This document shows positions 20,626-40,428 of a stretch of DNA of 64,000 nt, piece after piece. Every line of letters begins with the position of its first letter. The stretch's first letter is position 1. The stretch is from an uncultured Candidatus Saccharibacteria bacterium (GTDB lineage: Bacteria; Patescibacteriota; Minisyncoccia; Phycocordibacterales; UBA918). The stretch is from the NCBI GenBank assembly GCA_964593375.1, contig CAZQIF010000001.1:6405-70404 (forward strand), in the 5' to 3' direction. The notes beneath the pieces are model-generated. The model did no database searches. It was not told where the DNA came from and was given only the letters and a program-made list of their open reading frames with translations. A program made the translations under genes and the position numbers.

Positions 20626-20853
20626 CCTAACCTCCTAGGTTGGGTTTTTACCTTATGTACAATTGTCTGTATGCATTATAGACATATATTCGTGCACCAT
20701 GTCAAGCTATGACTGTAGGTTTCCAAAAACTCATTTCATTGTGTAATTGTTACTAGTTCGTCGAAGTACGCCTCGTGGCTTAACCCGAGGATACTGCGAC
20801 ATTAAGAATGTATCTTCGGTGGACGATACACCTGCTAGAATAAACGCCAGGTT

Positions 20854-20901
20854 CAGCACGCTATACCCCGTCAGCTAGCTGCTGCGGGGTATAGCGTGCT
20901 G
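20854..20901. repeat. long near-perfect palindrome (17-bp arms CAGCACGCTATACCCCG / CGGGGTATAGCGTGCTG around the palindromic core CAGCTAGCTG); possible regulatory or terminator hairpin
   Basis: Seen directly, upstream of the META-domain gene. Confidence 0.6.
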
Positions 20902-20955
20902 ACGTTTCTACATTCCTTCATACGGCTCGTAAGTAACTGTATAATTAACTATATT

Positions 20956-21876
20956 ATGAAACTTTCACATTTTTTTGTTCTCGCTCTCATCGTGATTATT
21001 ATTGTCATTGCCTATATCAGTTATCAAAATAAACCTGTTGTAACTGTCCCACCAGAAGTACCCGCTCAAGTCACTTCAAATCCAAAAGATATTACCTACG
21101 AAATCGACCACATCATTTTCACACTCGTGAATGGGTATGCAGAACAAGCAGTTGTTCCTGATTCTGCTTCAAAATCAACCGTGCGCATGTTCGGTGAACC
21201 GGTATACGGCGATCTCGATGGCGACGGCGACGAGGACGCAGCTGTACTCCTCACGTACGACGGTGGCGGAACCGGCACGTTCTACTATGCATCACTCGCT
21301 ATCAAGCACTCAGGTGGATTTAGGAGCACCAACACGCTACTCCTCGGCGACCGCATCGCACCACAGACCATAGAGATTCATGACGGCAAAGCAGTATTCA
21401 ATTATGCTGAACGAAAAGCAGGCGAACCGATGACTACTATGCCATCAGTAGGTAAAAGTCTTTGGATTCATCTTGACTCAAAGAAAAATGAAATTGGTGA
21501 GCTTGTACAAAATTTCGAAGGCGAATCGAGTTCAGAGCAAATGACACTCACCATGAAGCCGTGGACATGGGTACGCACCGAGTATGCTGATGGCACCATA
21601 TTCACACCGCGCCAAACGAGTGCGTTTGCAATTACCCTAAAAGAAGACGGTTCCTTTGGAGCAACAACCGACTGCAACAGCATGGGTGGTTCATACACAA
21701 AGACCTCGAGCTCACTCGTTTTCAGTGAAATCATGTCGACACTCATGTACTGCGAGAATTCTGACGAAGCAACCTTCTCCTCACTCCTTAATGAAGTGAA
21801 AACATATCGATTCACGAGTAAAGGTGAGCTCCTCCTCGATACCGACATGGGGCTTAAAACCGCAGTCTTCCGCTAG
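20956..21876 (+). CDS. membrane-anchored META domain-containing protein (HslJ-like)
   Basis: C-terminal MKPWTWVRTEYADGT...FAITLKEDGSFGATTDCNSMGGSYTKTSSSLVFSEIMSTLMYCENSDEATFSSLLNEV matches the META/DUF306 pattern. The ORF track starts at GTG 20896 and the first ATG is at 20956 (MKLSHFF..., signal anchor). Confidence 0.75.
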   Translation: MKLSHFFVLALIVIIIVIAYISYQNKPVVTVPPEVPAQVTSNPKDITYEIDHIIFTLVNGYAEQAVVPDSASKSTVRMFGEPVYGDLDGDGDEDAAVLLTYDGGGTGTFYYASLAIKHSGGFRSTNTLLLGDRIAPQTIEIHDGKAVFNYAERKAGEPMTTMPSVGKSLWIHLDSKKNEIGELVQNFEGESSSEQMTLTMKPWTWVRTEYADGTIFTPRQTSAFAITLKEDGSFGATTDCNSMGGSYTKTSSSLVFSEIMSTLMYCENSDEATFSSLLNEVKTYRFTSKGELLLDTDMGLKTAVFR

Positions 21877-21896
21877 TACTAAATATTCTTTGTGAC

Positions 21897-22445
21897 ATGA
21901 AAATCGCTATCGGTACGCTCCGCAAACCAAAAATCGACGGCATTAAAGAAGGTGTGAGCTCATGTCCGTATTTTCGTGATGTTCTTGAATCGATTGAATT
22001 CATTCCCACTGAAGTCTCTTCAGATATCAGCCATATGCCACTCACAATTCAAGAAGTAATGCAGGGAGCATTCAACCGCGCGAGAAATTTAATTAAACTC
22101 GGCATAGAAGCTGATTACTACATTGGCATCGAAGGTGGTGTCTCTCGTTTTGGTGAAAAAGCGTACATTTTCGGATGCGTATACATACAAAATGCTACAG
22201 GAGAAGGTCACTATGGTTTTTCACCCATGGCAGAAGTACCAAAACTCGTTGATGCACGACTCTATGAGAATGGGGAAGAGCTTGGACACATAATGGGAGA
22301 ACTTTCAGGAAGAACCGATATTCGTTCCGAAAACGGAAGCATGGGCGCATGGACTGATGACATGTTCACAAGAAAAGATGAATTCGTCGACGCCTTCAAA
22401 GCCGCCATCGCCCCGTTTTATAATTCGTTTTATACACTCAAATAA
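21897..22445 (+). CDS. yjjX: inosine/xanthosine triphosphatase (non-canonical purine NTP phosphatase, YjjX family)
   Basis: IGIEGGV, AGEGHYGFSP and a C-terminal ...AFKAAIAPFYNSFY that parallel E. coli YjjX (..AIEAGI.., ..ALSPFHNAVY). Confidence 0.8.
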   Translation: MKIAIGTLRKPKIDGIKEGVSSCPYFRDVLESIEFIPTEVSSDISHMPLTIQEVMQGAFNRARNLIKLGIEADYYIGIEGGVSRFGEKAYIFGCVYIQNATGEGHYGFSPMAEVPKLVDARLYENGEELGHIMGELSGRTDIRSENGSMGAWTDDMFTRKDEFVDAFKAAIAPFYNSFYTLK

Positions 22446-22447
22446 AT

Positions 22448-22463
22448 ATCAACACGTGTTGAT
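22448..22463. promoter_or_regulatory. perfect 16-bp palindrome ATCAACACGTGTTGAT between the yjjX stop and the toxin gene; candidate operator
   Basis: Seen directly. Confidence 0.4.
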
Positions 22464-22482
22464 GAATTATCGGTAAGTATTT

Positions 22483-22932
22483 GTGTACACCAATGTTAAG
22501 ATTTTATCGATGGATATGTACAAAAAAGATTTTGATAAGTGGAACAGTGAAAAGAAACTAATAAACGAAAACCATAGAAAGGTTTTTGGTTACCCTCGTG
22601 AAGTATGGTGGTGTTCACTTGGTGTCAATGTAGGGTCTGAAATAGACGGAAAGAACGAAAATTTTGAACGCCCTGTTATTATCCTTCGTGTATACAACAA
22701 GGAAACCATGCTTGTACTGCCAACTACCGGTAAAGTTCAGGATAACAAATTCCATTTACCAATTGAGATTGAGACATACAACCCAGAGACTAAAAATACA
22801 TACAACAAGACCGTGTATGTAAAATTGACACAAGCTCGTGTGATAAGTAACAAACGATTGCTACGTAAAGTTGATGTGATTAACGAAAATGAGTTTGAGA
22901 AGATACGGGATGCGTTCAAATCATTCACCTAA
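22483..22932 (+). CDS. type II toxin-antitoxin system PemK/MazF-family toxin-like protein (solitary; no adjacent antitoxin ORF)
   Basis: The core ..GYPREVWWCSLGVNVGSEIDGKNENFERPVIILRV...MLVLPTTGK...VKLTQARVISNKRL follows the MazF/PemK fold pattern. The ORF-track start is GTG 22483 and the first ATG is 22510. Confidence 0.7.
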   Translation: MYTNVKILSMDMYKKDFDKWNSEKKLINENHRKVFGYPREVWWCSLGVNVGSEIDGKNENFERPVIILRVYNKETMLVLPTTGKVQDNKFHLPIEIETYNPETKNTYNKTVYVKLTQARVISNKRLLRKVDVINENEFEKIRDAFKSFT

Positions 22933-22937
22933 ATACA

Positions 22938-22968
22938 TCGATACCCCACATTACTGTGGGGTATCTCG
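22938..22968 (+). terminator. hairpin (GATACCCCAC-attact-GTGGGGTATC) after the toxin gene
   Basis: 10-bp perfect stem with a weak T-run. Confidence 0.45.
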
Positions 22969-23128
22969 GAGGCCGAAGCCCTAATGCATATATAATACCT
23001 GATTGAAAATTTTACGCAAGGATGAATAGTATATTCACTTTTCAAAAACTGCGTTCAGTGAAAGAATCGTACAATTCTATCAACACCCGGACCTTTACCC
23101 TCTTTGGACAGGAGTATACTGAAAGTAT

Positions 23129-24565
23129 ATGAAAAAAGAGATACCCCTAGGTCAAAGTAGGGAAGTGGTAGAAGAGATGGCAGAAAAAATTGAGCAGACG
23201 CTCAACGCGTTTGATGTACCCATCAAAGTAGTAAAAGCAATTGAAGGGCTACACAGCTATCACTTTCACCTCAAAACATTAAAGCCGGTACGAATGAAAG
23301 CGATTGAATCATTCGAACAAGATCTTCGGTATGCACTCGGTTCAAGCAAAGTTGAGATACAGGCACCAATACCTGATGAGGTGCTCATCGGTATCAGTGT
23401 GCCTAAAAGTGATTCAATTCCAATGCTACTGTGGAGTGATGCTGTAGAAGCAGAAGAATTTGCTGATTCCGGCTACCTCGTTGTTCCGCTCGGGCAGGAT
23501 GAATTTGGCGAAGAAGTTAATCTCAAGATTCCACGACTTCCACACGTACTCATTGGTGGTGCAACTGGTTCTGGTAAGACTGTTCTTCTCTATTCCATCA
23601 TCAATTCGCTTATGTTGAAGCATAGTCCTGATGAAGTCCGTTTTATTTTTGCTGATCCAAAACGGTGGAGTCTCGTTCAATACAATGGTATACCACACCT
23701 CCTTACGCCGGTTATTACTGACGCAAAGCGTGTGATTCTCGCACTCAAACATTGTATTAAAGAAATGGAACGAAGACTTGATATTTTTCTGGAAAACAGA
23801 ATTCTAAATATTTCTTCGTACCATACAAGTATCTACCAACCCGCTATTGAGAAATTTAAAAAGAGAGGTTCACGAGAAGATGAACGCGATGATCTCCCAG
23901 AACCGCTCCCGTACATTGTTATAGTGCTTGATGAGCTTTCTGATTTGATGGCGGCATACCCAAAAGAACTTGAAGCGTGCATTGTACGATTAGCACAAAA
24001 AAGCCGTACTGTTGGGATACATCTCATACTGAGTACACAACGTCCATCAGTGAATGTCGTAACCGGTCTCATGAAGGCAAATATTCCAACACGTATTGCG
24101 TTTCAAGTAACTTCCTCAATTGACTCACGTACTATTCTTGATCAATCAGGGGCGGAAAAATTGCTTGGCAATGGTGACATGCTCTACATAAACGCAGAAA
24201 TGTTACAACCAGCACGAATACAGGGATACTATATTTCTGATGAGGAAATGTTGAAAAACATAGAATTAATTAGAATGAAATACGACATGCCAGAACTTGA
24301 TTCTATACAATTCAGTAATAATAACTCTACAAATGGAGCATTTTTCAGTAATGATGAAGAAGATGAAGATGATGACCTGTACGAAGATGTAAAAGCGGTT
24401 GTAGTTGAAACAGGGAAGGCATCAACTTCATTTTTGCAACGAAAATTTGGTATCGGATATTCTCGCTCAGCAAAACTCATCGATTTACTCGAGGAGCGTG
24501 GTGTGATCGGCCCCAGCAATGGTTCAGAGCCACGAAAGGTACTTATTCCAAAGGAGGAAGACTAA
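23129..24565 (+). CDS. FtsK/SpoIIIE-family DNA translocase, soluble form (no N-terminal membrane domain) with a C-terminal gamma winged-helix domain
   Basis: Walker A GGATGSGKTV, Walker B IVIVLDELSDL, gamma domain SFLQRKFGIGYSRSAKLIDLLEERGVIG. No TM segments are apparent in the first 130 aa. Confidence 0.85.
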   Translation: MKKEIPLGQSREVVEEMAEKIEQTLNAFDVPIKVVKAIEGLHSYHFHLKTLKPVRMKAIESFEQDLRYALGSSKVEIQAPIPDEVLIGISVPKSDSIPMLLWSDAVEAEEFADSGYLVVPLGQDEFGEEVNLKIPRLPHVLIGGATGSGKTVLLYSIINSLMLKHSPDEVRFIFADPKRWSLVQYNGIPHLLTPVITDAKRVILALKHCIKEMERRLDIFLENRILNISSYHTSIYQPAIEKFKKRGSREDERDDLPEPLPYIVIVLDELSDLMAAYPKELEACIVRLAQKSRTVGIHLILSTQRPSVNVVTGLMKANIPTRIAFQVTSSIDSRTILDQSGAEKLLGNGDMLYINAEMLQPARIQGYYISDEEMLKNIELIRMKYDMPELDSIQFSNNNSTNGAFFSNDEEDEDDDLYEDVKAVVVETGKASTSFLQRKFGIGYSRSAKLIDLLEERGVIGPSNGSEPRKVLIPKEED

Positions 24566-24576
24566 CATCACGTACC

Positions 24577-24948
24577 ATGCAACCACTCGATGAAATACAT
24601 AATCCCGAACTACTTGAAATAATTGAAATTATTTCAATGGTGTACGAAAAATTTGAAATGCCAATCGAAGTTGAGGGAGTTTCTGAAGAAGATTTGCTAT
24701 ATGTCGTTCACTGTCTCGAATTAAATCATGCAAAAATCGATAAGGTAGATAAGTTACCTTCAACAATAGAATACACACTCAATAGAAAACCTGTCACCAT
24801 CAATCGACTATCCGAAGAACCAGACGACTACCGCTTTGAGATTCGTGTTCCTATGAAGTATGAAGAACCTGAAACGGCAATGGTTAAGGAAGAAAAGGAC
24901 AGTATCTTTATAATTTTCAATCCACTTGAATCGCCTGGTTTTGCTTAG
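24577..24948 (+). CDS. hypothetical protein (123 aa, acidic)
   Basis: ORF directly after the FtsK-like gene with no recognisable family. Confidence 0.55.
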   Translation: MQPLDEIHNPELLEIIEIISMVYEKFEMPIEVEGVSEEDLLYVVHCLELNHAKIDKVDKLPSTIEYTLNRKPVTINRLSEEPDDYRFEIRVPMKYEEPETAMVKEEKDSIFIIFNPLESPGFA

Positions 24949-25104
24949 TGATTTGAAGCAAACGCTTCTAAAACAGCCCGCGCCTTCGACGCGGGTGAAG
25001 GCAAAAAGTGAATTGAGTAAACCTACCTTAAATGCTACGATTTGCTATGTCACTTACAATACAATCGACATCCAGTTACGTCATGAAATCAAATAAGCGA
25101 AGCT

Positions 25105-27891
25105 ATGAGAATAAACTTTTCTGAAGTACAACGTAATGTCTCCGAGATTGCTAATCGCCAACAGTATACAATCAATGTGCTATATGAACTGATGGCTGCT
25201 TATGGTCGCTCTGCTTCATCAATCACGAAGCTTAGAAACGGAGTCAATAATCTCGCCGCTGACAAAAATACTACTGTTCTCCAACGCGGTGTAGTTTATT
25301 TTAAAGTCATTCAAAATACCGGCAGTTTGCCAGCTCAAGTCGAAAAACTAGAACAAGACCCTTTAACACAGCGCTACAACCCACGCTTTTTAATTGCGAC
25401 TGACTTAAAAAACTTTGCAGCAAAAGACACGAAGAAAGGAAACACACTTGAAATTGACTGGACTAACATAGACAGAAATGTTGATTTTTTTTATGGCTGG
25501 ACCGGAGACGAGGTTACTAGCGAAAAGACCGAAGCCGTTGCTGACCGCAGAGCTGCAGATAAAATGAAGGAGCTATACCAAGAAGTCGAGAAGGTCAATG
25601 CAAGCAAGTTCAAAAAAACCGGAAAGGATTTTCGTCACAATCTCAATGTATTTTTCACACGCCTGCTTTTCTGCTTCTTTGCTGAAGATACCGGGGTTTT
25701 TGCAAAAGAAGAGAGAGGAGTTTTTACAAGTGCAATACGTGATTATACGCAGATAGACGGTTCGGACTTAGATCAATTCCTCGGGACACTTTTCGAGTCA
25801 CTTGATGAAGAAGATAAAAGTATCTTCACTAGTCCATTTTCTAAGTTCCCATATGTAAATGGAAGATTGTTCGATAAGACTTATGGAATAGAAATTCCAA
25901 AATTTAATGCGCAGTCACGGCATCTTATTCTTGAATGCGGTGCACTTAGTTGGGCCCAAATCAATCCAGACATATTTGGTTCGATGTTCCAGAGTATTGT
26001 TGATGAGGAACATCGCGCTACTCACGGGATGCACTACACAAGCGTGCCAAATATTATGAAGACTATAGAGCCCCTATTCCTAGATGAACTCCGTGATGAA
26101 TTTGATAAATATTATGATGACCCAAAAAAGTTACAAAAACTGCATGAAAGGATATCAAAGATAAAAATATTTGATCCAGCTTGTGGCTCAGGAAATTTTT
26201 TAATCATTGCTTATAAGGAACTCAGAAAACTAGAACATGCCATTATTGAGCGTCTGTTTGAAGATGAATACATTGCCAATCAGCTTAAGAATAAGCTGCA
26301 ATCAAGTATTGACCTGAATAATTTCTACGGAATTGAGATAGATGATTTTGCGTGTGAGGTTGCTGTACTTTCGCTTTACTTGACTAAACATCAAATGAAC
26401 TTGGAGTTTGAAAAGCAGTTTGGTAGGGAAATCAAACTCATCCCACTTGTAGATAAGGCCAATGTTATTCACGGGAATGCAACCAGACTCGATTGGCAAG
26501 AAGTTTGCCCAAACGTCCCAACAAAGAAAAGTATGATTACTGAGCTGCAAGGACAGCTAATTGTGACTGAAGAAAATACCAATCACCTTCTGATGGAGAA
26601 TGAATGGGATGAAATATATCTCATTAGTAATCCTCCGTACTTGGGTCAACCTAATCAAGAAGATTCGCATAAAGCGGACATGGATTTTGTATTTGGGGGG
26701 TTACAGGGTAAGTTTAAGAAACTTGACTATGTCGGGTGTTGGTTTTTTAAGGGTACAGAATACATATCCAATACAAAAGCAAAATTAGCATTCATATCAA
26801 CTAACTCCATTTTTCAAGGTGTTCAAGTTGAGCAACTTTGGCCAAAATTATTCAGTCATAATATCGAGATTCAGTTTGCTTTTTCTCCTTTCAGGTGGAC
26901 TAACAACGCAAGAGATAATGCGGGTGTGTATGTGACTGTGGTCTCCTTAAGAGTGAGAGGAAAGTCAGATAAGTATTTGTTTATTGATGGAATCAAGTTG
27001 AAAGCGCGGAACATTAACGCATACTTGATTGATGCAGATAACATAATCGTAGGCAAGACAAAGCATTCGATTTCAAGCCTACATCCAGTGCTAGGGGGGT
27101 GCCAGCCACGTGAGGGTGGGCATCTCATGCTGTCCGATAAAGAGAAGCATGAGTTGTTAAAAAGATCTCCAGAAGCAAATAGATTCATCAAACCGATGAT
27201 TGGCACAAATGAACTAATTAAGGGAACTCGGAAGTGGTGCATTTGGATAGAAGATTCAGAACTAGATGAAGCTTTCAAGATTAAGGAAATCAAGGAAAGA
27301 GTAAACTCTGTCCGAGCGCATAGAATCTCTGGAAATTCAGTTGAGCGAACATTTGCTAACGTTCCTCATAGGTTTGTTACAATCAAACGCCCAATGGCGC
27401 ATCAAATTGTAATTCCTAACTTAACACCCATTGATAAACCTTATCTTCCATTAGGATACTTAAATAGAGAGTACATTGTAAATAAGCAAGCATATTGCAT
27501 ATTTGACTCTGGTTTGGAATATTTTGCACTTTTAATATCAAAAACTCACATGAAATGGCTCGAAGTAGTTTGCGGTAGATTGGGCAACGCAATAAGCTAT
27601 TCTGCACATATTGGATATAATACTTTCCCGGTAAAGAATATGGATGAAAGTGAAGTTAATAAGCTAAGAGCTTCGGCCAGGGAAATATTATTTACACGAC
27701 AAAATCATTCAGAAATGAGTTTGGGAGAGCTGTACTCTACAACCACCATGCCAGATGATTTGCGTGAGGCGCATCATCAAAATGACTTACTGGTAGACAA
27801 GTTATATCGACAAAAACCGTATGCTAATGATGAAGAACGACTGACTGACTTGTTTAAATTGTATGAAGAAATGATAACTAAAGAGAAATAA
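25105..27891 (+). CDS. MmeI-family Type IIL-like restriction-modification protein (N-terminal nuclease-like domain, gamma-class N6-adenine DNA methyltransferase, C-terminal target-recognition domain)
   Basis: There are long collinear matches to MmeI: RLLFCFFAEDT, FPYVNGRLF, IFGSMFQSIVD, HYTSVPNIMKTIEPLFLDEL, FDPACGSGNFLIIAYKELRKLE (motif I), FYGIEIDDF, HQMN, NPPY (motif IV), FISTNSIFQGVQVEQLWP, FAFSPFRWTNNA, AYLID, RKWCIWI, YNTFP. The upstream segment PRFLIATDLKNF parallels MmeI PRYVLVCDFQRF. Confidence 0.9.
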   Translation: MRINFSEVQRNVSEIANRQQYTINVLYELMAAYGRSASSITKLRNGVNNLAADKNTTVLQRGVVYFKVIQNTGSLPAQVEKLEQDPLTQRYNPRFLIATDLKNFAAKDTKKGNTLEIDWTNIDRNVDFFYGWTGDEVTSEKTEAVADRRAADKMKELYQEVEKVNASKFKKTGKDFRHNLNVFFTRLLFCFFAEDTGVFAKEERGVFTSAIRDYTQIDGSDLDQFLGTLFESLDEEDKSIFTSPFSKFPYVNGRLFDKTYGIEIPKFNAQSRHLILECGALSWAQINPDIFGSMFQSIVDEEHRATHGMHYTSVPNIMKTIEPLFLDELRDEFDKYYDDPKKLQKLHERISKIKIFDPACGSGNFLIIAYKELRKLEHAIIERLFEDEYIANQLKNKLQSSIDLNNFYGIEIDDFACEVAVLSLYLTKHQMNLEFEKQFGREIKLIPLVDKANVIHGNATRLDWQEVCPNVPTKKSMITELQGQLIVTEENTNHLLMENEWDEIYLISNPPYLGQPNQEDSHKADMDFVFGGLQGKFKKLDYVGCWFFKGTEYISNTKAKLAFISTNSIFQGVQVEQLWPKLFSHNIEIQFAFSPFRWTNNARDNAGVYVTVVSLRVRGKSDKYLFIDGIKLKARNINAYLIDADNIIVGKTKHSISSLHPVLGGCQPREGGHLMLSDKEKHELLKRSPEANRFIKPMIGTNELIKGTRKWCIWIEDSELDEAFKIKEIKERVNSVRAHRISGNSVERTFANVPHRFVTIKRPMAHQIVIPNLTPIDKPYLPLGYLNREYIVNKQAYCIFDSGLEYFALLISKTHMKWLEVVCGRLGNAISYSAHIGYNTFPVKNMDESEVNKLRASAREILFTRQNHSEMSLGELYSTTTMPDDLREAHHQNDLLVDKLYRQKPYANDEERLTDLFKLYEEMITKEK

Positions 27892-27892
27892 T

Positions 27893-29851
27893 ATGAACAA
27901 GGAAACAATAAACATAATAGAAAATGAGTATGAGCAGACGGGTGCAAGTAAGCGTCAGAATGAATTTGGCATGCGTGAGATGCAAGTGCGAGCCTATGAA
28001 AAACGTAATAGTAATCATTTACTGATTAAAGCTCCACCTGCATCTGGTAAATCTCGGGCACTAATGTTTATTGCCTTGGACAAACTACACAATCAAGGTA
28101 AGAAGAAAGTAATTGTGGCGGTACCCGAAACTTCAATTGGTGCTTCATTTTCTAGTATCAAACTTACAGAAAACGGTTTCTATGCTGACTGGGTTGTAGA
28201 ACCGATGAATAATCTATGTGCAGGTACTTGTGATGATAAAAGTAAAGTTAAGGCTTTTGTTAGATTCATGAATGGTGAAGATCGAATACTTGTTTGTACT
28301 CACGCAACACTTCGCTTTGCTTTTGAGGAGATACCATCCAAAGATTTCAATGACTGCGTATTGGCAATTGATGAATTCCACCATGTCTCAACGAGTGATT
28401 CGAGTCGGCTAGGAGAATTGGTCAGAAATGTGATGCGTGATTCTAATGTTCAAATGATTGCAATGACCGGGTCATACTTTCGAGGTGATGCTGTGCCCAT
28501 ACTTCGTGCAGAGGATGAAATGAATTTTGATAAAGTCACTTACACTTACTACGAACAACTTAACGGGTATGAGTACTTGAAAACCCTGGGCATAGGTTAT
28601 CACTTCTATACCGGAAACTACCTCGATAAAGGCGCGCTCGATAGTGTGCTAGATACAACAAAGAAGACCATCATTCATATTCCAAATGTGAATTCAAAAG
28701 AGTCAACACAGATTGGTAAGGATGAAGAGGTGCAACATATCTACGGTATCATTGGTGAATGGATCGAACAGGATTCCGATACTGGTATAGAAATTTTAGA
28801 AACAGAAGATGGTAGAAAATTGAAGATCGCAAATCTTGTGGAGGATGAACCAATTCATAGAAGCAAGTTAGACAAATATCTAGCTGACGTGGCTCGAGAT
28901 AGTATCGATGGCGTAGACATTATCATCGCACTTGGTAAGGCAAAAGAAGGATTTGATTGGCCATTTTGTGAACAAGCACTCACCATCGGGTATCGAGCAA
29001 GTCTAACTGAAATCGTACAAATAATAGGTCGTTGCACGAGAGATAGCTACAACAAAAACCACGCACAGTTCACAAATTTAATCGTTCAACCAAATGGAAC
29101 ACAGGATGATGTACAGGTATCGGTCAATAACATGCTCAAGGCGATTACCGCTTCTTTACTCATGGAGCAGGTCCTCGCCCCTAACTTTACTTTCAAACCA
29201 AGGACATCCCCACGAGATAAAACTTCTGCAGGGGAGGTGTTTGTCAAAGGACTCAGACAACCAACGAATGAGAAGGTGAAAAGAATACTGGAAACCGAGT
29301 TGGAAGATTTAACTGCTGCTGTTCTGCAAGACACACAATATCAAAGGTCCGTAGCAGCAGACCATTCTCCTGAGTATCGCAAGCACTTGCAATCAAAAAT
29401 AATTCGAGAAAAACTGCCTGGTCTCACTGACGAGGAAGTGGAGACAACAAGACAGTATCTCGCTAGCAACCTGGCGTTTAAAACCGGAAAGATAACTGCA
29501 GATGGAGATAAGAAATTTATTACCATGGCAAATAGTTTCGTTAATCTTGATGATTTGACCATTGACTTGATTGATTCTGTGAACCCATTCCAGCATGCGT
29601 TTGAGGTTATTTCTAAAAAAGTAGGTGCTGATGTATTCAGGGTCATTCAGGATACGATTGCTGGTTCACGTATAGATATGTCAGACGAGGATGCACTTGT
29701 GCTCGTTCCTCAAATAGAGTCGTTTGTCGTCACTCACAATGGTCAACACCCAAAACTGAATTCAAACGACAAGAATGAGAAGTTACTAGCACAGGCAAAA
29801 GCGTATCTCACTGCTAGATATTCTCAAATCATGAGGGATAAGCAAAAATAA
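27893..29851 (+). CDS. SF2 helicase-family ATPase (DExH box), 652 aa
   Basis: Motif I APPASGKS, Ia VAVPETS, II DEFHH, III MTGS, VI QIIGRCTRD. The start codon lies 1 bp after the stop of the methyltransferase gene. Confidence 0.85.
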   Translation: MNKETINIIENEYEQTGASKRQNEFGMREMQVRAYEKRNSNHLLIKAPPASGKSRALMFIALDKLHNQGKKKVIVAVPETSIGASFSSIKLTENGFYADWVVEPMNNLCAGTCDDKSKVKAFVRFMNGEDRILVCTHATLRFAFEEIPSKDFNDCVLAIDEFHHVSTSDSSRLGELVRNVMRDSNVQMIAMTGSYFRGDAVPILRAEDEMNFDKVTYTYYEQLNGYEYLKTLGIGYHFYTGNYLDKGALDSVLDTTKKTIIHIPNVNSKESTQIGKDEEVQHIYGIIGEWIEQDSDTGIEILETEDGRKLKIANLVEDEPIHRSKLDKYLADVARDSIDGVDIIIALGKAKEGFDWPFCEQALTIGYRASLTEIVQIIGRCTRDSYNKNHAQFTNLIVQPNGTQDDVQVSVNNMLKAITASLLMEQVLAPNFTFKPRTSPRDKTSAGEVFVKGLRQPTNEKVKRILETELEDLTAAVLQDTQYQRSVAADHSPEYRKHLQSKIIREKLPGLTDEEVETTRQYLASNLAFKTGKITADGDKKFITMANSFVNLDDLTIDLIDSVNPFQHAFEVISKKVGADVFRVIQDTIAGSRIDMSDEDALVLVPQIESFVVTHNGQHPKLNSNDKNEKLLAQAKAYLTARYSQIMRDKQK

Positions 29852-29854
29852 TTC

Positions 29855-31021
29855 ATGTCTGACAAAGATTTTACAAAAGAATTACGCGAACTTTTTGAAT
29901 CAGAAGCCGGCGCCTTATTTATCCCGAAGGAGACACCCAGGAAACTTACTGTAGATGATAGATTAGCTGAGTCCTTCCAACAGATAATAAATTTTGTACA
30001 AGAAAATGATTGTAAACCAGAAATTGATTCACTAGACTTCAATGAGGCACTGCTATCAAAACGACTTGAATTGATAAAACATACACCAGAAAAAGTTCAA
30101 GCCTTAGAACAATATGATTCTTTAGGGTTGTTGGTACAGCCTGAAACACCAAAGAGTATTGAAGAGTTATTTGAAAAAGATGAGTTTGGACTTTTTAAAG
30201 GTGATGAGAACAAAATCTTCAACATTGAACACATCAAACAAAGGAAGGTTGTAAATCCAGTGGGAGAAAGAGCCACAAGGATTAAATCGGAAGACTTTGC
30301 TGAATTTGAAATAATCTTTAAAGATGCTCAGGAAAAGCTAAAGAGTGGAGATAATAAGCTCTTCGCATTTAAATCCGTCGAACAACTTCACGTAGGACAT
30401 CTTTATATTAACAGTGGACAAATGGTCTATGTTGCAAGTGAGGGTCAGATAGATGAAAAGGCTGGCTATAAGCAGCAGAGACTACGAGTGATTATTGAGA
30501 ATGGCACTGAATCGAACATGTATAGACGCTCCCTCGCTCAACGATTATATGAAGGTGGATATTGTGTAGTTGGTAACGAAGAATTATCTAGTGGTCTTCC
30601 TGATGAATCGGAAAAGATTAAAGGGTACATTTATGTCGTACGTTCTTTGAGTGAAAATTCAAAAATAAATACAATTGCAAATCTCTACAAAATTGGTTTT
30701 TCCAGAACACCGGTTTCTCAAAGAATTGCTAATGCAAAAATCGATCCTACCTACCTGATGTCTGAAGTGGATCTGGTTGAGAGTTACAGATTAACAGGAG
30801 ATTACAACCCACAAAAAGTAGAGGATATGATTCATAGGGTATTTTCAGATGTTGCCCTCGATATGAAGATAATTGATAACCAAGGTCGAGAGTATAAACC
30901 AAAGGAGTGGTATTCAGTACCAATTCATATTATTCGCGAAGTAGTTGATCTTATAGATTCTGGTGAGATTGTGAATTATGTTTATGATTCAAACCAGCAA
31001 AAGATGGAACTGGTAAAATAA
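29855..31021 (+). CDS. T5orf172 (MUG113/GIY-YIG-like) domain-containing protein, 388 aa
   Basis: C-terminal GYIYVVRSLSENSKINTIANLYKIGFSRTPVSQRIANAKIDP...EDMIHRVF...EWYSVPIHII fits the T5orf172 pattern (G.IYV....KIG.T.....R......EWF). The N-terminal 250 aa are unassigned. The start lies 3 bp after the helicase stop. Confidence 0.75.
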   Translation: MSDKDFTKELRELFESEAGALFIPKETPRKLTVDDRLAESFQQIINFVQENDCKPEIDSLDFNEALLSKRLELIKHTPEKVQALEQYDSLGLLVQPETPKSIEELFEKDEFGLFKGDENKIFNIEHIKQRKVVNPVGERATRIKSEDFAEFEIIFKDAQEKLKSGDNKLFAFKSVEQLHVGHLYINSGQMVYVASEGQIDEKAGYKQQRLRVIIENGTESNMYRRSLAQRLYEGGYCVVGNEELSSGLPDESEKIKGYIYVVRSLSENSKINTIANLYKIGFSRTPVSQRIANAKIDPTYLMSEVDLVESYRLTGDYNPQKVEDMIHRVFSDVALDMKIIDNQGREYKPKEWYSVPIHIIREVVDLIDSGEIVNYVYDSNQQKMELVK

Positions 31022-31190
31022 GCAACAAGAAATTTTTTGTATAGTAACTATATCAACCTTACCATGTGATTTTTATTTATTAAAAAAGTAATCGTGAATA
31101 GAATCTAGTTTACCTGATTGTGGACAAATATACGTTCATTAATTTAAAATTTGTAACATCAGTTGATGTGTTCGAAAAATTTGCATTCTT

Positions 31191-32507
31191 TCATTTAACT
31201 TTTTTTAGTTTGTGAAAATCTACGAGTGTCTTTCCGAGTCTGTCAATGACACCTACAACAAGAGCGTTTCCCATGAAGAAAGCTCTCCGCGCGTCGCCAT
31301 GTCCTTGTGTGTGATTGTCAGGGAACATGCACAGTCTTTCTAGTTCAAGTGGTGTGAGGCGTCGAAGACCTTTCTTAGTCTGAACCACATGTTTAAACCG
31401 TGATGGACTCTTTCCACCTTCTCCAGTAATTATAGTCCGAGAGGGTTTATCAAGTGGGTCAGGGAAGACCATACCTCCTTCTGTGTATATGAACTCAAAA
31501 CCATTTGCCGCCTTTCTTGGTTCATTCTTCGCTCCTTTTAAATACTCCCAACGTTTTAAATCATTCTCTGAAATATAGAAATCATCAGGAACATCCGTTT
31601 CATCTAACAAAATATCGCCGATTGTGATTGAGGACCCTTCATATTTTGGTTGTACCTTTACAGTGTGAATTTTGTAATCAAAAGCAATACCTGCGTTTTT
31701 AAATGGTGAATGATTAGGTTTGTAGGTTTCAAAATCATTAGAGATGATTACTGGGTCTGTGTGAAGATGTCTTGTTTGAACCTCAGAAGCAAATTCAACA
31801 GGAAAAGCTTTTGCAGTTAATCCTTTATCATGTAACCATGACTCGATAGAATTGTGAGCGACAAATTTCTCATGTATTGGAGAACCTTTCTTATATCCAA
31901 GTATAAAAATGCGCCTTCTTCTTTGTGGTAATCCATACTCAGCAGCGTTAATAACTCTCCACTCCACTACATACCCAAGTTCATTTAGAGTTGAAAGGAT
32001 AATTGCGAAATCACGACCGCGCTGTGAGGCTGGGGACTTAAGGAGACGGTCAACATTTTCCAACATAAGGTAGTTGGGTGATTTATCTCCCTTTTTTTTA
32101 AGAATATTATATATAGACCACCAAAGAACACCCTTCTTTCCTTCGAGTCCTTTAGCGGCAGAAAGATTTCTCGCAACAGAATAGTCCTGGCAAGGGAATC
32201 CACCAACAAGTAAATCGTGATCAGGAACCATATCAATGACCCGAGCGATATCCTTATTGGTATATTCATCAAAGTCACCAAAATTTCTCACATAAGTTTC
32301 ATGTGCATGCTGCTTCTTTGTTGAAGGTTCCCACTGATTGAACCAAATGGTTTCGTAGTGCTTGTGATGAGGCTTTCTGTTTCCCTTGTACCCCTCGAGC
32401 CCAAGTCGGAATCCCCCGACACCCGCAAATAATTCAACAACTTTCAAACTATCTGTTTTAGATTTTCTATTGATCTTTTTTTGATTTGTGGTGTTATTTT
32501 GTGTCAT
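31191..32507 (-). CDS. DNA (cytosine-5)-methyltransferase
   Basis: Motif I ELFAGVGGFRLGLEG, motif IV GGFPCQDYS, ENV (LMLENV), QRR (YGLPQRRRRIF). Confidence 0.9.
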   Translation of the reverse strand: MTQNNTTNQKKINRKSKTDSLKVVELFAGVGGFRLGLEGYKGNRKPHHKHYETIWFNQWEPSTKKQHAHETYVRNFGDFDEYTNKDIARVIDMVPDHDLLVGGFPCQDYSVARNLSAAKGLEGKKGVLWWSIYNILKKKGDKSPNYLMLENVDRLLKSPASQRGRDFAIILSTLNELGYVVEWRVINAAEYGLPQRRRRIFILGYKKGSPIHEKFVAHNSIESWLHDKGLTAKAFPVEFASEVQTRHLHTDPVIISNDFETYKPNHSPFKNAGIAFDYKIHTVKVQPKYEGSSITIGDILLDETDVPDDFYISENDLKRWEYLKGAKNEPRKAANGFEFIYTEGGMVFPDPLDKPSRTIITGEGGKSPSRFKHVVQTKKGLRRLTPLELERLCMFPDNHTQGHGDARRAFFMGNALVVGVIDRLGKTLVDFHKLKKVK

Positions 32508-32569
32508 TTAGTGCTAGCATTCTAACATGTGAGTTAAAAGTGATCAATCACTTACACCAACACACCACA

Positions 32570-33376
32570 ATGAACGCAAAAGATCAAGATAATGGTAATT
32601 TAAGTCTTGAATTAACGAGCAAACTTGCTGTAAATCTTGATGAACTCAAAACCAACGTCAGTGGTGTAAGAAGAATTGAAAGAGCAAAAGAGGCAATATC
32701 GTGGTCTTCTGGTTTAGCTTTAGAAAATCAACATTTTCATGAGATTTGGAAAGATAATAATGGTTTTTATTCTGTAAAAATGGCAAAGCCGGGTAAGGAG
32801 TTTTTTGAAACTGCAATCAGATATAAGGACGGTCACCGTGACAACAATCCAAATGATATGAGGCCGACGCTTTTTGTCGGTGCTGTACAGCAATCAAATT
32901 ATGCTACCTTCCAGGAAGTGTTTCATGAGCTCCAAATAACTTGGCGAAAAAGTGAATTTGCTGCTGAATTACTTGCTTGTCTTTTGTTTAGGTCTGCATT
33001 TATGGTTGATCATACAAAAAATAAATTTGGGGAAGAGGGCTACTGGAGATATGTCCCAAATCAAGATGTCGTTTCAATTCTCGAGTCAGAACTCAATTCA
33101 ATGCATGGCATCTCCTGTCTAGCTTTTTTGCATTATCTTGATGCTATAGGTTTAAATGAGGATGTGAAATATCTGACACTGGGTTACCCAATTCAACAAG
33201 GATACGGTAGACGTAACAACCTTCTTACTTATGTAAATATTCTCTCTATGTTTCTTGAGAGGGAGACTTTTGGAGCAGTGGCTGGTGCGTTTTCAAGACC
33301 CCCAGCTGGAGTTGCACCGATATCTCAAAGTAAAGCGATACAATTTTTCCCGTGGCTTTCAAGTGTTCCTCGCTAG
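32570..33376 (+). CDS. hypothetical protein, divergent from the C5-methyltransferase gene; candidate cognate Type II restriction endonuclease (positional inference only)
   Basis: The ORF track starts at TTG 32486 and overlaps the methyltransferase start. The first ATG (32570) gives a 63-bp divergent spacer. No recognisable motifs. The C-terminal 40 aa are low complexity. Confidence 0.4.
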   Translation: MNAKDQDNGNLSLELTSKLAVNLDELKTNVSGVRRIERAKEAISWSSGLALENQHFHEIWKDNNGFYSVKMAKPGKEFFETAIRYKDGHRDNNPNDMRPTLFVGAVQQSNYATFQEVFHELQITWRKSEFAAELLACLLFRSAFMVDHTKNKFGEEGYWRYVPNQDVVSILESELNSMHGISCLAFLHYLDAIGLNEDVKYLTLGYPIQQGYGRRNNLLTYVNILSMFLERETFGAVAGAFSRPPAGVAPISQSKAIQFFPWLSSVPR

Positions 33377-33435
33377 GATATTGACGTTGTCTTTCTTACA
33401 CAGTTTACTTTTATATAATATTTAGCTTAACTTAT

Positions 33436-34632
33436 ATGAATCAAATAATATGTCCACATTGTAAAAAGACTTTCACAATCGATGATGAGGGTTTCGCTAA
33501 TATCTTAGTGCAGGTACGTAACCAAGAGTTTGAGAAAGAGTTACATGAGCGTCTTGAGTTACTAGAGAAAGATAAAGAAAGTGCGATCAAATTATCAGAA
33601 GCAAGTTTAAAGAACCAACTACAAAGTGATTTAGCAATCAAAGATGCTGAGTTGGCGGAGTTGAAATCAAAAGTAAGTAACATTGAACTTGAGAAAAAAC
33701 TTGCCGTAACTGAAGCAGTGACTGCAATTGAAAAGGAGCGCGATGCTCTTTCATCTAAACTTCAAAACAAGGAGCATGAAAGTAAAATTCTTGAAGCCTC
33801 ACTGAAAGATAAATATGAAAGTGAACTGAAATTCAAGGATGAGACGATTGATCGCCTCAAAGATATGAAGTTGAAACTCAGCACAAAGATGGTTGGCGAG
33901 ACACTGGAACAACACTGTGAAACTGAATTTAATAAATTACGCGCCACAGGTTTCAAAAATGCTTATTTTGAAAAAGATAATGATTCAAAAACTGGTAGCA
34001 AAGGTGACTATATTTATCGCGAAGACGATGATTCAGGCAATGAGATTATCTCAATAATGTTTGAAATGAAAAATGAAAGTGATGAGACTACTACCAAGAA
34101 AAAGAATGAGGACTTTTTACGCGAACTTGATAAAGACCGTATTGAAAAGAAATGCGAGTTCGCTGTTCTTGTTTCGCTTTTAGAGTTAGACAGCGAACTA
34201 TACAACACCGGAATTGTCGATGTATTTCACAAGTATCCAAAAATGTATGTCGTTCGTCCACAATTTTTCATTCCAATCATAACCTTGTTACGCAACGCTG
34301 CCTTGAGTTCTCTTGAATACAAAGCAGAGCTTGCAGTAGTTCGAGCACAAAATATTGATATCACGAACTTCGAAGAAAATATGGAGGAGTTTAAAAGTGC
34401 ATTTGGTAAGAATTATGAACTATGGGGTCGAAAGTTTGGCGAAGCAATTGAAGGCATCGATAAGACAATTACTCAGCTAGAGAAAACAAAAGCTGCACTT
34501 CTTTCTTCAGAGAATAATCTTCGACTAGCAAATGGTAAAGCCCAAGACCTTACCATTAAAAAATTGACCCGAGGTAATCCTACAATGAAAGTAAAGTTTG
34601 AGGAGCTTTCAGATACTAAAAAGCCACTGTAA
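33436..34632 (+). CDS. DUF2130-like protein (N-terminal CxxC zinc ribbon, long coiled coil, conserved C-terminal domain)
   Basis: [13 protein letters not shown]..., then about 150 aa of coiled coil, then the C-terminal region ..[27 protein letters not shown].. typical of the family. The family name is recalled from memory. Confidence 0.65.
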
Positions 34633-34634
34633 AA

Positions 34635-35006
34635 ATGAAAGCAAATAATAAAAGTATTTTAGGTCTACTAAACAGAGCAAAAATTTATGGCCTCCCAGAG
34701 GAAAAATTAAGGGAAATTTTACTGAGAGATAAAAACTGTATTTTTTGCGGTATAAAAATGAAGACTCACGTATCCTCTATTGGAACACCACGAGATAAAA
34801 AGACAATTGAGCATTTTAGTAATAAAGCTGAATGGGGAGAAGCGGTTGATGTCGGTATTTGTTGTGGTAGCTGCAATTCGAGTAAAAGTAATAAAAAAAT
34901 ATTTGATTGGTTTAAAACTAAATATTGCCTAGAACGAAATATCAATGAAAGAACAGTGGCAGAGCCAGTCAAAGATTATATTAAGAACAATAGTAAAAAG
35001 AGTTAA
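34635..35006 (+). CDS. HNH endonuclease family protein (small)
   Basis: CIFCGIKM...KTIEHFSNKAEWGEAVDVGICCGSCNSSK gives the CxxC...H...CxxC HNH/zinc-finger arrangement. The start lies 3 bp after the DUF2130 stop. Confidence 0.7.
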   Translation: MKANNKSILGLLNRAKIYGLPEEKLREILLRDKNCIFCGIKMKTHVSSIGTPRDKKTIEHFSNKAEWGEAVDVGICCGSCNSSKSNKKIFDWFKTKYCLERNINERTVAEPVKDYIKNNSKKS

Positions 35007-35052
35007 TAAGTATCATATAGTTCATCATATGTAACTAGTTTGAATAAGGAAT

Positions 35053-35358
35053 ATGGAAATCAAGAATAGCATTGAGGAAATAACTGAATTGGCTGAAAAA
35101 AGTGAGGAAGATACGTACATGGGATTAAAATACTCTATTTTGATGAGTGTTGTTGGAGCTTTATTATGTTATTACGCACATGGATTGTTATGGTGGGGAG
35201 GAGTTTTTTTGTTAGGACTTGCATTAAGGGATTTTTTTCAGAGAGAAGGATATCAAAAAGGATTCATCAGTGGATATGATGCCGGTGTTGAAGATGCGTC
35301 TCCAGATAGTACTGAATATAAAAACTGGTTATCCGGAAATGAGGACAGTCACGATTAA
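35053..35358 (+). CDS. hypothetical small membrane protein (101 aa)
   Basis: ORF with one or two hydrophobic helices. Confidence 0.5.
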   Translation: MEIKNSIEEITELAEKSEEDTYMGLKYSILMSVVGALLCYYAHGLLWWGGVFLLGLALRDFFQREGYQKGFISGYDAGVEDASPDSTEYKNWLSGNEDSHD

Positions 35359-35467
35359 TTTCAAAGTATCGGGCCACCTCACGGGTACTTCTTCCTTCGC
35401 GCACCATACGCACCGCCTGTGCGTGGAGACGTGGTAGTTTATCATTTGTGCAATATGTCATTTTCAT
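35267..35467 (-). mobile_element. transposase N-terminal helix-turn-helix fragment (remnant of an IS element; truncated)
   Basis: ..DKLPRLHAQAVRMVREGRSTREVARYFEI.. resembles the HTH of IS3/IS630-type transposase N-termini. Only about 66 aa are open and it overlaps the 3' end of the preceding gene, so it is a decayed remnant. Confidence 0.4.
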
Positions 35468-35580: not shown

Positions 35581-37203
35581 ATGAAAAAGGCCATTATTTC
35601 GTTCGCCGTTGCACTCATTCTGGTACCATCAATTTCCTTTGCGGCAACACCTCCCAATATGGCCGCTCTAGAGGCACATAAAATTCAGATAATGGAGCAA
35701 CTTATCGTGCTTCTTAAAGCACAAATCGAACAGCTTGTTGCCATTCTCGCACAGCGTCAGATGGTTTTGGGGGTAAGCACAACTACTCTTACCTCCTCGC
35801 CTACTACAACCACTGAAACGACTGTCCCCATAGTTAAAAAGAAACGGTCTGGCGGTGGTGGAGGTGGTGGTTCTTCGCACAGCAATCCTCCCCCAGAACC
35901 GCTCGTTCTCGATATGACTGCGCTCGAGAATCATTTCACTATTTCTGCTAATTACCCACTCGACCCACAGTTCATCACAGTGACCCTTAACCAAGCACCT
36001 GAATATACAGAAATACCGACAGTGCTTTCACTCCATAGTGCTGTGAGTGATGGTTCATTTCAAGATATTGAACTCACCAAAGTACCAAACGAACTCGCAT
36101 ACACCGTTGATATGCGTGCACGACTTGGGGCTGGTTTGAGTTTTATTGGAGAGTTTGATGTAGTCTTCCCTGATGCTCTTCTTCCTGAAGTATTTGAGTA
36201 CACCACCTATTGGGACGGCAATGGTGTAACAAGAACTACTAGTATGACAAATCCGGGCTTAATAGGAGATGACCTCAATTTTATGCAATCAGCCGAAAAC
36301 CCAGATGCGATGACTTTTGCTCTTGATGAGGATGAAAAAGTTGAATACGGCATCTTCGCGTTTGACCTCTCCACTGTAGAGAGTGTTGGCTACGTTACTC
36401 TCAATCAAATTAGCATCAACGTTACTGTTGGAACATTCGCATCAGGATCAAATCTAGATACGCTTGTTAATGACTTTCGTATTGAAGTTGATGGAGTGTC
36501 TTATGATGCTGAACCATATGTAGGAACTGGTTCTTCTGCATTAATAACTTTTGACATAAATGGTGAGCTAGCAATCCTCAGAAATCAGACTGTAGCTGTC
36601 GTTCTATTTGCTGACTTCAATTCGATGGATAGTGTAGACGAGGGTTCGACAATAGTCGCTTCTGCCTCAGCATCAGGTATCAGTACCATCGAACCAATAA
36701 CGGTGGATGGAGGAACGGTCACGGGAGATACGCACACATTAAGGGTTAGTGGTGCTTTTAGTGAAGCAACCGATGAATCAGTATCAATGCAAGAAAATAG
36801 CGATTTTACTACTGAGGATAATTCAGGAATCTTCACCATTGAGTTTGATGTGACGGGATTTGGAACGGACTTGTACATCGATGATTCTGCTGTTCAGGGA
36901 ACGAATCTCGGTATCGAAGGAGTGAATTACTTAATGATGACAACGGATGGTGCAACGACCTCTGGTTCAGCGGTTGCGTCGGTTAGTTCTACTGCAAGTA
37001 ATGAAGGTGGGCGTTACTTAGTCTCTGAAGGTGAAACCGAAAGCTTTACACTTACCGTTGAGTATGACCCAGTGTCATCAGCATCGTATAGGATGCAACT
37101 ACACAGCTTGAACTTTAAGAACATAAATGGTGACCCCGACACACAGCAACTAACAATTCCTGTTGAGGATTATCGAACCAGCAATCTTGTGATTTTGAAT
37201 TAA
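35581..37203 (+). CDS. hypothetical secreted protein (signal peptide, Thr-rich linker, Gly8 tract, large beta-rich domain)
   Basis: MKKAIISFAVALILVPSISFAATP signal peptide. No family recognised. Confidence 0.75.
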   Translation: MKKAIISFAVALILVPSISFAATPPNMAALEAHKIQIMEQLIVLLKAQIEQLVAILAQRQMVLGVSTTTLTSSPTTTTETTVPIVKKKRSGGGGGGGSSHSNPPPEPLVLDMTALENHFTISANYPLDPQFITVTLNQAPEYTEIPTVLSLHSAVSDGSFQDIELTKVPNELAYTVDMRARLGAGLSFIGEFDVVFPDALLPEVFEYTTYWDGNGVTRTTSMTNPGLIGDDLNFMQSAENPDAMTFALDEDEKVEYGIFAFDLSTVESVGYVTLNQISINVTVGTFASGSNLDTLVNDFRIEVDGVSYDAEPYVGTGSSALITFDINGELAILRNQTVAVVLFADFNSMDSVDEGSTIVASASASGISTIEPITVDGGTVTGDTHTLRVSGAFSEATDESVSMQENSDFTTEDNSGIFTIEFDVTGFGTDLYIDDSAVQGTNLGIEGVNYLMMTTDGATTSGSAVASVSSTASNEGGRYLVSEGETESFTLTVEYDPVSSASYRMQLHSLNFKNINGDPDTQQLTIPVEDYRTSNLVILN

Positions 37204-38466: not shown

Positions 38467-38811
38467 ATGGCCTACGTTGAGGACTTATACGATATTCAAG
38501 AAGTTACAAATGCGCTTCATGAACTATTTGCTGGCTCTGGACTTCAGGTGGAATTTGAGGAGGTGTACATTGGCGACCTCCACACAAGTTATCTCATAAA
38601 CTTGCCACAACCCGAACAACTCGCGGAATACAAACCACTTTTATATGATGCGGTTGCAGAACTTCTCGGTACGACAAACTTCACCATCGAAGCTCCTGTT
38701 GGGGAAACCAATAATCAAATGCTCATAACGCTGCTCATTCCATACATTGAAAGTGAGGAAAGTTTTTTTGATACCATCAAGTCATACTTTCAAAGTTGGA
38801 ATGATTTTTAG
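38467..38811 (+). CDS. hypothetical protein (114 aa, acidic)
   Basis: ORF with no family recognised. Confidence 0.55.
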   Translation: MAYVEDLYDIQEVTNALHELFAGSGLQVEFEEVYIGDLHTSYLINLPQPEQLAEYKPLLYDAVAELLGTTNFTIEAPVGETNNQMLITLLIPYIESEESFFDTIKSYFQSWNDF

Positions 38812-40371: not shown

Positions 40372-40428
40372 CAAACTCTCTAAGAGACCGTAGAGAGTTT
40401 GACTTTGGTGTTGATATATAATAATTCA

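Follow-up and report, generated by a model that had tools for sequence, protein, structure and literature searches.

The locus described here raises the question of whether a run of restriction, nuclease and toxin genes in an uncultured Candidatus Saccharibacteria bacterium arrived as a single mobile element, and where that run begins and ends. It lies on contig CAZQIF010000001.1 (assembly GCA_964593375.1), of which positions 6,405 to 70,404 of the forward strand were analysed; this stretch of 64,000 nucleotides is called the window below, and coordinates are window positions unless a relative is named. An earlier note on this DNA had proposed a 13 kb integrated defence island extending from a MazF-like toxin gene to a transposase remnant, with a membrane-less FtsK as a translocase of the type used by integrative and conjugative elements (ICEs). 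The genes that it named were all recovered by calling open reading frames (ORFs), which we checked with Pfam, PADLOC, NCBIfam and PHROG profile scans, but the left boundary was wrong, as mazF and ftsK have host-like k-mers and ftsK is placed by synteny among the core genes. We consider it likely that the feature is a chromosomal defence-gene cluster situated between the core gene ftsK, together with a small trailing ORF, and a core gene for an S49/NfeD-like protease. Its cargo occupies ∼24.95–35.36 kb, i.e. ∼10.4 kb, and the ftsK-to-S49 gap amounts to 12.7 kb if a 540-aa gene is counted. The relatives used for comparison are the loci labelled L006, L008/L009, L010, L011, L012, L013, L018 and L019; seven distinct loci among them have FtsK identities of 54–68%. 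The names carried by homologues suggest a host in or near the candidate phyla radiation; it is not a gammaproteobacterium.

The flanking genes and the toxin slot

The ftsK gene (23129–24565, plus strand) is the left anchor and encodes a protein of 478 aa that lacks a membrane domain, in which Pfam recognizes the alpha, beta and gamma domains and which aligns to residues 887–1352 of E. coli FtsK. A protein search placed it in a family of membrane-less homologues of ∼460–480 aa at 53–68% identity, among which a short-form homologue is named from Kaiserbacteria, and the next-best matches were 4TM FtsK proteins of Paceibacterota and Pacebacteria (51–56%). The contexts of ftsK in seven relatives are housekeeping ones, with genes for UvrA/UvrC, UDP-glucose dehydrogenase, Ddl, ATP synthase, pyruvate kinase, enolase and guanylate kinase, and with yjjX or META upstream. 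Moreover, L008 shares a long-range order with the window that runs from ATP synthase beta (93% identity) through epsilon, flavodoxin and META to ftsK and S49. The S49 gene stands directly 3′ of ftsK in L008/L009, after a gap of 34 nt, and in L010, and L008 and L010 are branches that differ in their upstream synteny; it is found just upstream of ftsK in L013 and 9 kb downstream of it in L019. The S49/NfeD-like gene of the window, which is the core right anchor (37295–38410, plus strand; PF01343, 9.5e-32), begins 12.7 kb downstream of ftsK and is 39–41% identical to the L008/L009 and L010 copies, and 39–43% across the S49 genes when L013 and L019 are included. Hence the empty site that the earlier note had proposed to look for does show up as a polymorphism in these relatives, but it places ftsK outside the island. 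Judged by its gene order, ftsK is a core gene, and because it belongs to the short-FtsK family, has housekeeping synteny and is linked to the S49 gene, the reading of it as an ICE-type translocase does not hold. From these comparisons, a group of uncultured bacteria appears to have the membrane-less form of ∼460–480 aa as its usual chromosomal FtsK, often linked to an S49/NfeD-like gene.

A 123-aa ORF (24577–24948, plus strand) starts 12 nt after ftsK and is probably co-transcribed with it. This ORF is weakly similar to small ftsK-side proteins of relatives: it is 32% identical to L019_133, with an E-value of 3e-6 that comes from a database of just 17 sequences, and 28% identical to the N-terminus of a second FtsK-like protein in L018. 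A GC-rich hairpin (24977–24995) lies downstream of it. Because the ORF resembles the ftsK-side small proteins of L019 and L018 and the hairpin comes after it, the left junction of the cluster is probably at ∼24.95–25.10 kb, and the membership of the ORF itself in the island is uncertain. On the other side, the ORF that comes after the S49 gene (38467–38811, 114 aa) resembles the ORF after S49 in L010 (12471–12809). As a separate observation, the products of 24577–24948 and 38467–38811 in the window, of 8084–8485 in L019, of 12471–12809 in L010 and of 229–1257 in L018 are mutually weakly similar, by E-values from the same 17-sequence database; the L018 member is the second FtsK-like ATPase, and its similarity to the small proteins lies in the N-terminus of the ATPase. 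These small proteins may constitute one family associated with FtsK.

Upstream of ftsK, the yjjX-like NTPase gene (21897–22445, plus strand; PF01931, E 2.4e-35) forms the core left flank and lies outside the island. Its counterpart in L011, the closest relative (FtsK 68%), lies upstream of a HigBA-ftsK unit and is 85% identical, and a search among 185,579 species representatives gave three distant matches, the best of which (59%) was in a genome labelled Candidatus Peribacteria and was without shared synteny. Between yjjX and ftsK the window has a solitary MazF/PemK-like toxin gene (22510–22932, plus strand, alternative start at 22483; PF02452, 49.7 bits; phrog_9567, E 1e-14) with a GC content of 0.364. 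In L011 the corresponding position is taken by a Gp49/HTH (HigB/HigA-like) pair, the same pair precedes ftsK in L019, and a Fic/RhuM gene precedes it in L013. From these arrangements we take mazF to be the occupant of a small, independently variable toxin slot between core yjjX and ftsK, apart from the main cargo; because the core gene ftsK separates it from that cargo, mazF does not bound the island. The description of mazF as solitary and preceded by a 16-bp palindrome stands as far as both observations go: no antitoxin-sized ORF is present within 64 nt upstream or 196 nt downstream, a viral MazF homologue is likewise without an obvious MazE, and the perfect palindrome ATCAACACGTGTTGAT is found at 22448–22463, between the yjjX stop and the mazF start. 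However, the palindrome is not unusual and is no evidence by itself, because the window has two perfect 16-bp palindromes and shuffled sequences have 1.1 on average; it may serve as an operator. A scan for promoters and terminators gave counts no better than those in shuffles.

Three further observations concern this flank. A perfect 10-bp hairpin (ATACCCCACA-TTAC-TGTGGGGTAT) lies at 22942–22965, 3′ of the mazF stop, and an inverted repeat at 20853–20902, with perfect arms of 18 nt around a loop of 14 nt, overlaps the GTG predicted as the start codon of the META-domain gene. A Logan contig of 2.1 kb from SRR12762274, the only public contig with an identical yjjX, is 100% identical to 20936–23054, and it ends at 23054, in the mazF–ftsK intergenic region, which may reflect a coverage break or a population variant. 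Exact look-ups of FtsK and of the 540-aa protein gave no record.

The GC content averages 0.377 in cargo genes and 0.428 in other genes of the window (Mann–Whitney p 7e-5; the low-GC set tested also took in MazF and the 540-aa gene), GC3 is likewise lower in cargo genes, and tetranucleotide deviation peaks at 30–36 kb and again at 38–42 kb. Host-like tetranucleotide content was seen over mazF and ftsK, and likewise over the 540-aa gene and the S49 segment. Two of the features just described, the missing membrane domain of FtsK and the toxin genes that adjoin ftsK in several relatives, would fit a single integrative or mobilizable element of 13 kb that reaches from MazF (22448) to the transposase remnant (35467), with FtsK as its translocase and MazF as its addiction toxin; GC also drops from ∼22.4 kb, and the 100% identical Logan contig breaks off at 23054, between mazF and ftsK. 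Against such an element, the short FtsK homologues stand in housekeeping contexts with yjjX or META upstream and S49 downstream, the next-nearest FtsK relatives are cellular 4TM proteins, the alpha/beta/gamma architecture matches that of cellular FtsK, and the ftsK region is host-like in its k-mers. Moreover, no integrase or recombinase domain was found by Pfam and other profile scans of the ORFs at 22.4–37.3 kb, the window has no tRNA, and no att-type direct repeats flank the region, in which only short, imperfect, chance-like repeats were seen; the att sites that had been expected at its ends are therefore lacking, and of an integrase, att repeats and an element-borne FtsK absent from the core, none was found. 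A single element is largely refuted by synteny, and we regard it as highly improbable.

Three modules within the cluster

The first module of the chromosomal cluster is an operon on the plus strand, whose composition of MmeI-like, helicase and T5orf172 genes was confirmed by domain matches. It consists of an MmeI-like N6-adenine methylase of the YeeA/DnmA class (25105–27891; MmeI_Mtase 4e-98, MmeI_TRD 3.5e-62), a YeeB-type DEAD/ResIII helicase (27893–29851; Pfam DEAD and ResIII) and a YeeC-type T5orf172/GIY-YIG-like nuclease of 388 aa (29855–31021; T5orf172 1.9e-10, MUG113 2.8e-11), packed tightly with spacings of 1 and 3 nt. The alignment of the MmeI-like protein to the MmeI structure 5HR4 begins at residue 87, and no D-X9-E-X-K motif was seen by eye in residues 1–86. 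The motif sought was the catalytic motif of MmeI. The helicase is 57% identical over 97% of its length to Proteus plasmid genes that come after MmeI-like genes, with similar identities on Bacillus and Rhodococcus plasmids, and the YeeC-type protein is 36.5% identical to a hypothetical and GIY-YIG pair located 3′ of the helicase on a Proteus plasmid. Morgan et al. (2009, PMC2731913) described MmeI homologues without a PD-ExK motif, whose first ∼100 residues differ and whose genes always have those for a helicase and a GIY-YIG protein as neighbours; accounts of YeeABC as a class with a conserved order of three genes are given there and in PMC9973331. By gene content and order, the operon is a YeeA(DnmA)-YeeB-YeeC system. 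As is predicted from the family, its MmeI-like subunit, without a nuclease of its own, would recognize an asymmetric site and methylate adenine on host DNA, and the helicase together with the T5orf172/GIY-YIG nuclease would act on unmodified incoming DNA. What such systems do is debated: the B. subtilis yeeABC genes gave no phage protection in reported tests (PMC9973331), and yeeAB-dependent phage resistance has been reported for Vibrio crassostreae in a preprint (10.1101/2021.05.05.442762). For FtsK and the MmeI-like gene, PADLOC also suggested MADS and SspH, which we set aside because the similarity is of a generic, domain-level kind; for MADS2, the NCBIfam score is 18 bits, where the cut-off stands at 720. 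The PADLOC matches within the cargo are to a type IIG enzyme-methylase model (5.8e-265) and to a type II methylase (7.5e-161).

The second module is a C5 cytosine DNA methylase gene on the minus strand (31191–32507; PF00145, 7.6e-60) that diverges from a plus-strand partner gene (32567–33376) for a protein of 269 aa, or 296 aa if read from a TTG at 32486. The divergent arrangement is as had been noted, but its second half, a putative restriction endonuclease, has no assignable nuclease fold or motif. The partner has no Pfam, PADLOC or NCBIfam match, and no PDB match by fold or by profile/sequence, and its AF2 model has a pLDDT of 94.4. Its family comprises 59 matches in a 90%-identity protein collection, mostly of ∼250 aa, with K74, E78, D97, D148, H149, E198, D199 and K201 among the invariant residues, and a homologue with 45% identity again stands in divergent orientation next to a C5 methylase gene on three contigs (L020–L022, probably a single organism). 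The methylase itself is 69% identical to one that stands beside a MutH-like nuclease downstream of ftsK in L006, in the same divergent layout, and its plasmid homologues (44–47% identical) are paired with MutH/Sau3AI or BglII/BstYI enzymes. The partner is probably a restriction endonuclease of an undescribed family.

The tetranucleotide GATC is strongly avoided in this DNA. The window has 66 copies where 205 are expected (observed/expected ratio (O/E) 0.32, z −9.7), and no other 4-bp palindrome comes close to this depletion. GATC likewise ranks as the most depleted one in L020, where the same methylase–partner pair is present and O/E is 0.16, and in most of the related loci (the comparison took in L020, L001, L006, L012 and L013). 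Cargo (O/E 0.38) and core (0.28–0.31) are depleted alike, and the homologous plasmid loci have ratios of 0.82 and 1.09. Because of the MutH pairing in L006, the Sau3AI/BstYI pairings on plasmids and the GATC depletion of the window and of L020, the specificity of the C5 methylase and its partner is probably of the GATC type, and the depletion suggests a long-standing GATC restriction in the lineage. Hence the module would be a type II m5C restriction-modification pair with a nuclease of an undescribed family, and the partner is possibly a candidate for a new, GATC-specific family of restriction endonucleases.

The third module, whose two predicted genes were both confirmed, comprises a DUF2130 protein (33436–34632, plus strand; PF09903, 2.4e-87) and a small HNH nuclease of 123 aa (34635–35006, plus strand) that begins 3 nt past the DUF2130 stop. 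The DUF2130 protein has a zinc ribbon and a PD-(D/E)XK-type domain, in line with the classification of DUF2130 in the PD-(D/E)XK superfamily (PMC3424549); its N-terminal half may be a coiled coil, as read by eye from charged heptad-like residues. Plasmid genes of Bradyrhizobium and Ralstonia share 63% identity with it, and on the one Bradyrhizobium plasmid examined no HNH neighbour was present, so that a conserved pairing was not seen there. The HNH ORF has no Pfam match and is matched only by phage profiles (phrog_2214, HNH endonuclease, E 1.2e-8), and a CxxC...H...CxxCN pattern was read in its sequence. Together they would form a PD-(D/E)XK and HNH nuclease pair.

The last low-GC cargo gene is a hydrophobic ORF of 101 aa (35053–35358, plus strand; GC 0.363). 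The right edge is marked by a helix-turn-helix (HTH) remnant of ∼110 bp on the minus strand (35359–35467; called as a fragment at 35267–35467 earlier) that resembles transposase N-termini. A phmmer/HMMER search among 1.8 billion representatives gave 14 matches, in which residues 1–36/40 of the fragment match the N-termini of short proteins at 55–68% identity. Several of these short proteins give mostly sub-threshold signals for HTH_23, HTH_28, HTH_Tnp_IS630 or HTH_Tnp_1, and two matches reach the Pfam gathering score; two of the approximately eight short homologues scanned had no Pfam match at all. For the fragment itself, tblastn against plasmids gave nothing and Pfam only a sub-threshold HTH. 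The homology stops at approximately residue 37, i.e. at ∼35358, exactly where the low-GC cargo ends, and the segment is locally GC-rich. The remnant noted earlier is therefore real as an HTH fragment, and its identity as a decayed transposase is plausible but depends on family signals that are mostly sub-threshold. No catalytic part, inverted repeats or second copy, as an insertion sequence (IS) would have, was found at this remnant of ∼37 residues.

Beyond it lies a gene for a secreted protein of 540 aa (35581–37203, plus strand; GC 0.439), whose signal peptide, read in the sequence, agrees with the earlier description. The protein has no significant Pfam match, and no homologue was found in any relative locus compared. 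Its composition is host-like and it stands inside the ftsK–S49 gap; it may or may not belong to the insertion.

Variable cargo at ftsK and the origin of the cluster

At the same locus, relatives carry other genes of a similar kind. The cargo by ftsK is a MutH-type restriction-modification pair with HigBA in L006, an SNF2/DUF4391/methylase set in L008, an HTH_17/methylase set in L012, and a PLD-SNF2 gene with an MmeI-like methylase in L013. A gene of ∼144 aa is conserved 3′ of ftsK in L006 (12048–12488), L013 and L019, and its copy in L012 (1666–1863) is cut to 65 aa, being 85% identical to that of L006 over the first 62 aa; the cut point is the start of the HTH_17/N6_N4 methylase block, and, as read from the two sequences, it directly records an insertion into this same hotspot. 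These comparisons, which cover seven distinct and distant relative loci, suggest that the ftsK locus is a recurrent hotspot for defence and toxin genes. The window itself has at least two recognized defence systems side by side and presence/absence polymorphism with respect to these (distant) relatives. A further proposal joins two parts, namely that the flanks of ftsK are a dedicated hotspot with integrase-free exchange of toxin and restriction modules, and that the 269-aa partner is a GATC-specific endonuclease of unseen fold; it is tentative, and we lean somewhat against its being right as a whole.

Most likely, the genes of the cluster would have come in by horizontal transfer and then been joined by recombination at a locus where, in related genomes, defence genes accumulate again and again, possibly with help from an IS in the acquisition. 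A foreign affinity is seen in the helicase (57%) and DUF2130 (63%), which match plasmid genes at these identities compared with 53–68% for FtsK within its own family. The cluster is probably immobile now, because no recombinase, att site or tRNA is present and only the truncated transposase-type HTH lies at the right edge. Thus the claim of an integrated defence island is retained insofar as a defence block interrupts what is a contiguous order in relatives, but without any sign of present mobility.

The right edge would also suit an origin of the cargo as an IS-bounded composite transposon, or by IS-mediated capture, in which the HTH fragment is the rest of one flanking IS: the truncated HTH, whose homologues give transposase-associated family signals, sits exactly at the end of the low-GC cargo (35358/35359). 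However, it is a single remnant, a further copy of the IS was not found, nor were terminal inverted repeats or a target-site duplication, and the homologues of the fragment are themselves short and without a catalytic domain. We think this origin very unlikely.

Alternatively, there may have been no insertion, the cluster or at least the GATC pair being ancestral at ftsK and lost or replaced in relatives, so that the empty site would be a secondary deletion. The C5 methylase with 69% identity downstream of ftsK in L006, in the same divergent layout, is what such an ancestral pair would leave, and so are the status of GATC as the most depleted 4-bp palindrome in most relatives and the equal depletion of cargo and core in the window. 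Yet the L008 and L010 branches, with unlike upstream synteny, both have ftsK followed by S49, the nuclease partner of the methylase in L006 is another one, of the MutH type, FtsK is more distant from its own family than the helicase and DUF2130 are from plasmid genes of proteobacteria and Gram-positive bacteria, and a transposase-type remnant lies at the edge. An ancestral cluster is in our judgement unlikely.

Several observations nevertheless weigh against insertion of a foreign defence cluster between ftsK and S49. The closest relative has an FtsK identity of 68%, so the junctions are not resolved to the base, and an insertion here and a deletion in relatives cannot be rigorously separated. 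The origins of the 123-aa ORF and of the 540-aa gene are weak points, and the yeeABC segment shows only mild k-mer deviation. The equal GATC depletion of cargo and core means that the cargo has either been resident for a long time or was received from donors exposed to the same restriction pressure, and it speaks against a recent import from an unrelated donor. The 69% identity of the C5 methylase to the same-locus copy of L006 means that this module may be old and vertically kept. The defensive role of the present cluster is a prediction from sequence, and the phage tests of B. subtilis yeeABC were negative (PMC9973331).

Other features of the window lie outside the island. A DUF3800 gene of very low GC (0.276) is present at 40399–41046 (Pfam E 2e-16), and a DUF3800-IX RNA motif (41072–41140, minus strand; 50.3 bits, gathering score 36.8) adjoins it; together with a 421-aa ORF (38842–40107) they form a second compositionally deviant segment. 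A 513-aa ORF at 16701–18242, with a locally high GC of 0.51, joins PurC (SAICAR synthase) and PurE-like regions in one polypeptide.

Comparison with known systems

ICEs and the actinomycete AICEs have in common with this locus an FtsK-domain ATPase without membrane helices beside accessory genes. The FtsK described here differs from theirs in its full cellular alpha/beta/gamma architecture and its housekeeping synteny, and in having no integrase, relaxase, replication or att partner. Hence a membrane-less FtsK beside defence genes is alone no sign of a conjugative element, as in this lineage it is a normal chromosomal gene.

The first module agrees with YeeABC of B. subtilis in its gene order and tight packing, in an MmeI-like methylase and target-recognition domain (TRD) with divergent first ∼90 residues, and in a DEAD helicase followed by a T5orf172/GIY-YIG protein. 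It differs in that YeeC is one ORF of 388 aa, compared with two ORFs in the Proteus plasmid annotation, and in its host, which is an uncultured, probably candidate-phyla-radiation bacterium. An intact YeeABC system in an uncultured bacterium with a reduced genome is thereby added to the distribution of the class. Likewise, the second module has related methylases (69% in L006, 44–47% on plasmids) and a strong GATC avoidance of the genome in common with m5C systems of the Sau3AI and BstYI types, but its partner is neither MutH-like nor BglII-like and belongs to an unannotated family of ∼250 aa. We consider this partner the most promising lead of the locus, as a candidate new restriction-endonuclease family, probably of the GATC type, with a confident model and no PDB match.

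Chromosomal defence islands and hotspots anchored by core genes have reportedly been described by Makarova et al. in 2011 and in hotspot surveys of E. coli and Pseudomonas. A defence cluster at a variable locus is thus a well-known kind of feature, and the components found here are of known families except for the methylase partner. In common with such islands, the present cluster has unrelated restriction and nuclease systems side by side, variable cargo in relatives, lower GC and an IS-type remnant; it differs in its anchors, which are a soluble ftsK and an S49 protease gene, and in that the hotspot is drawn from seven relative loci.

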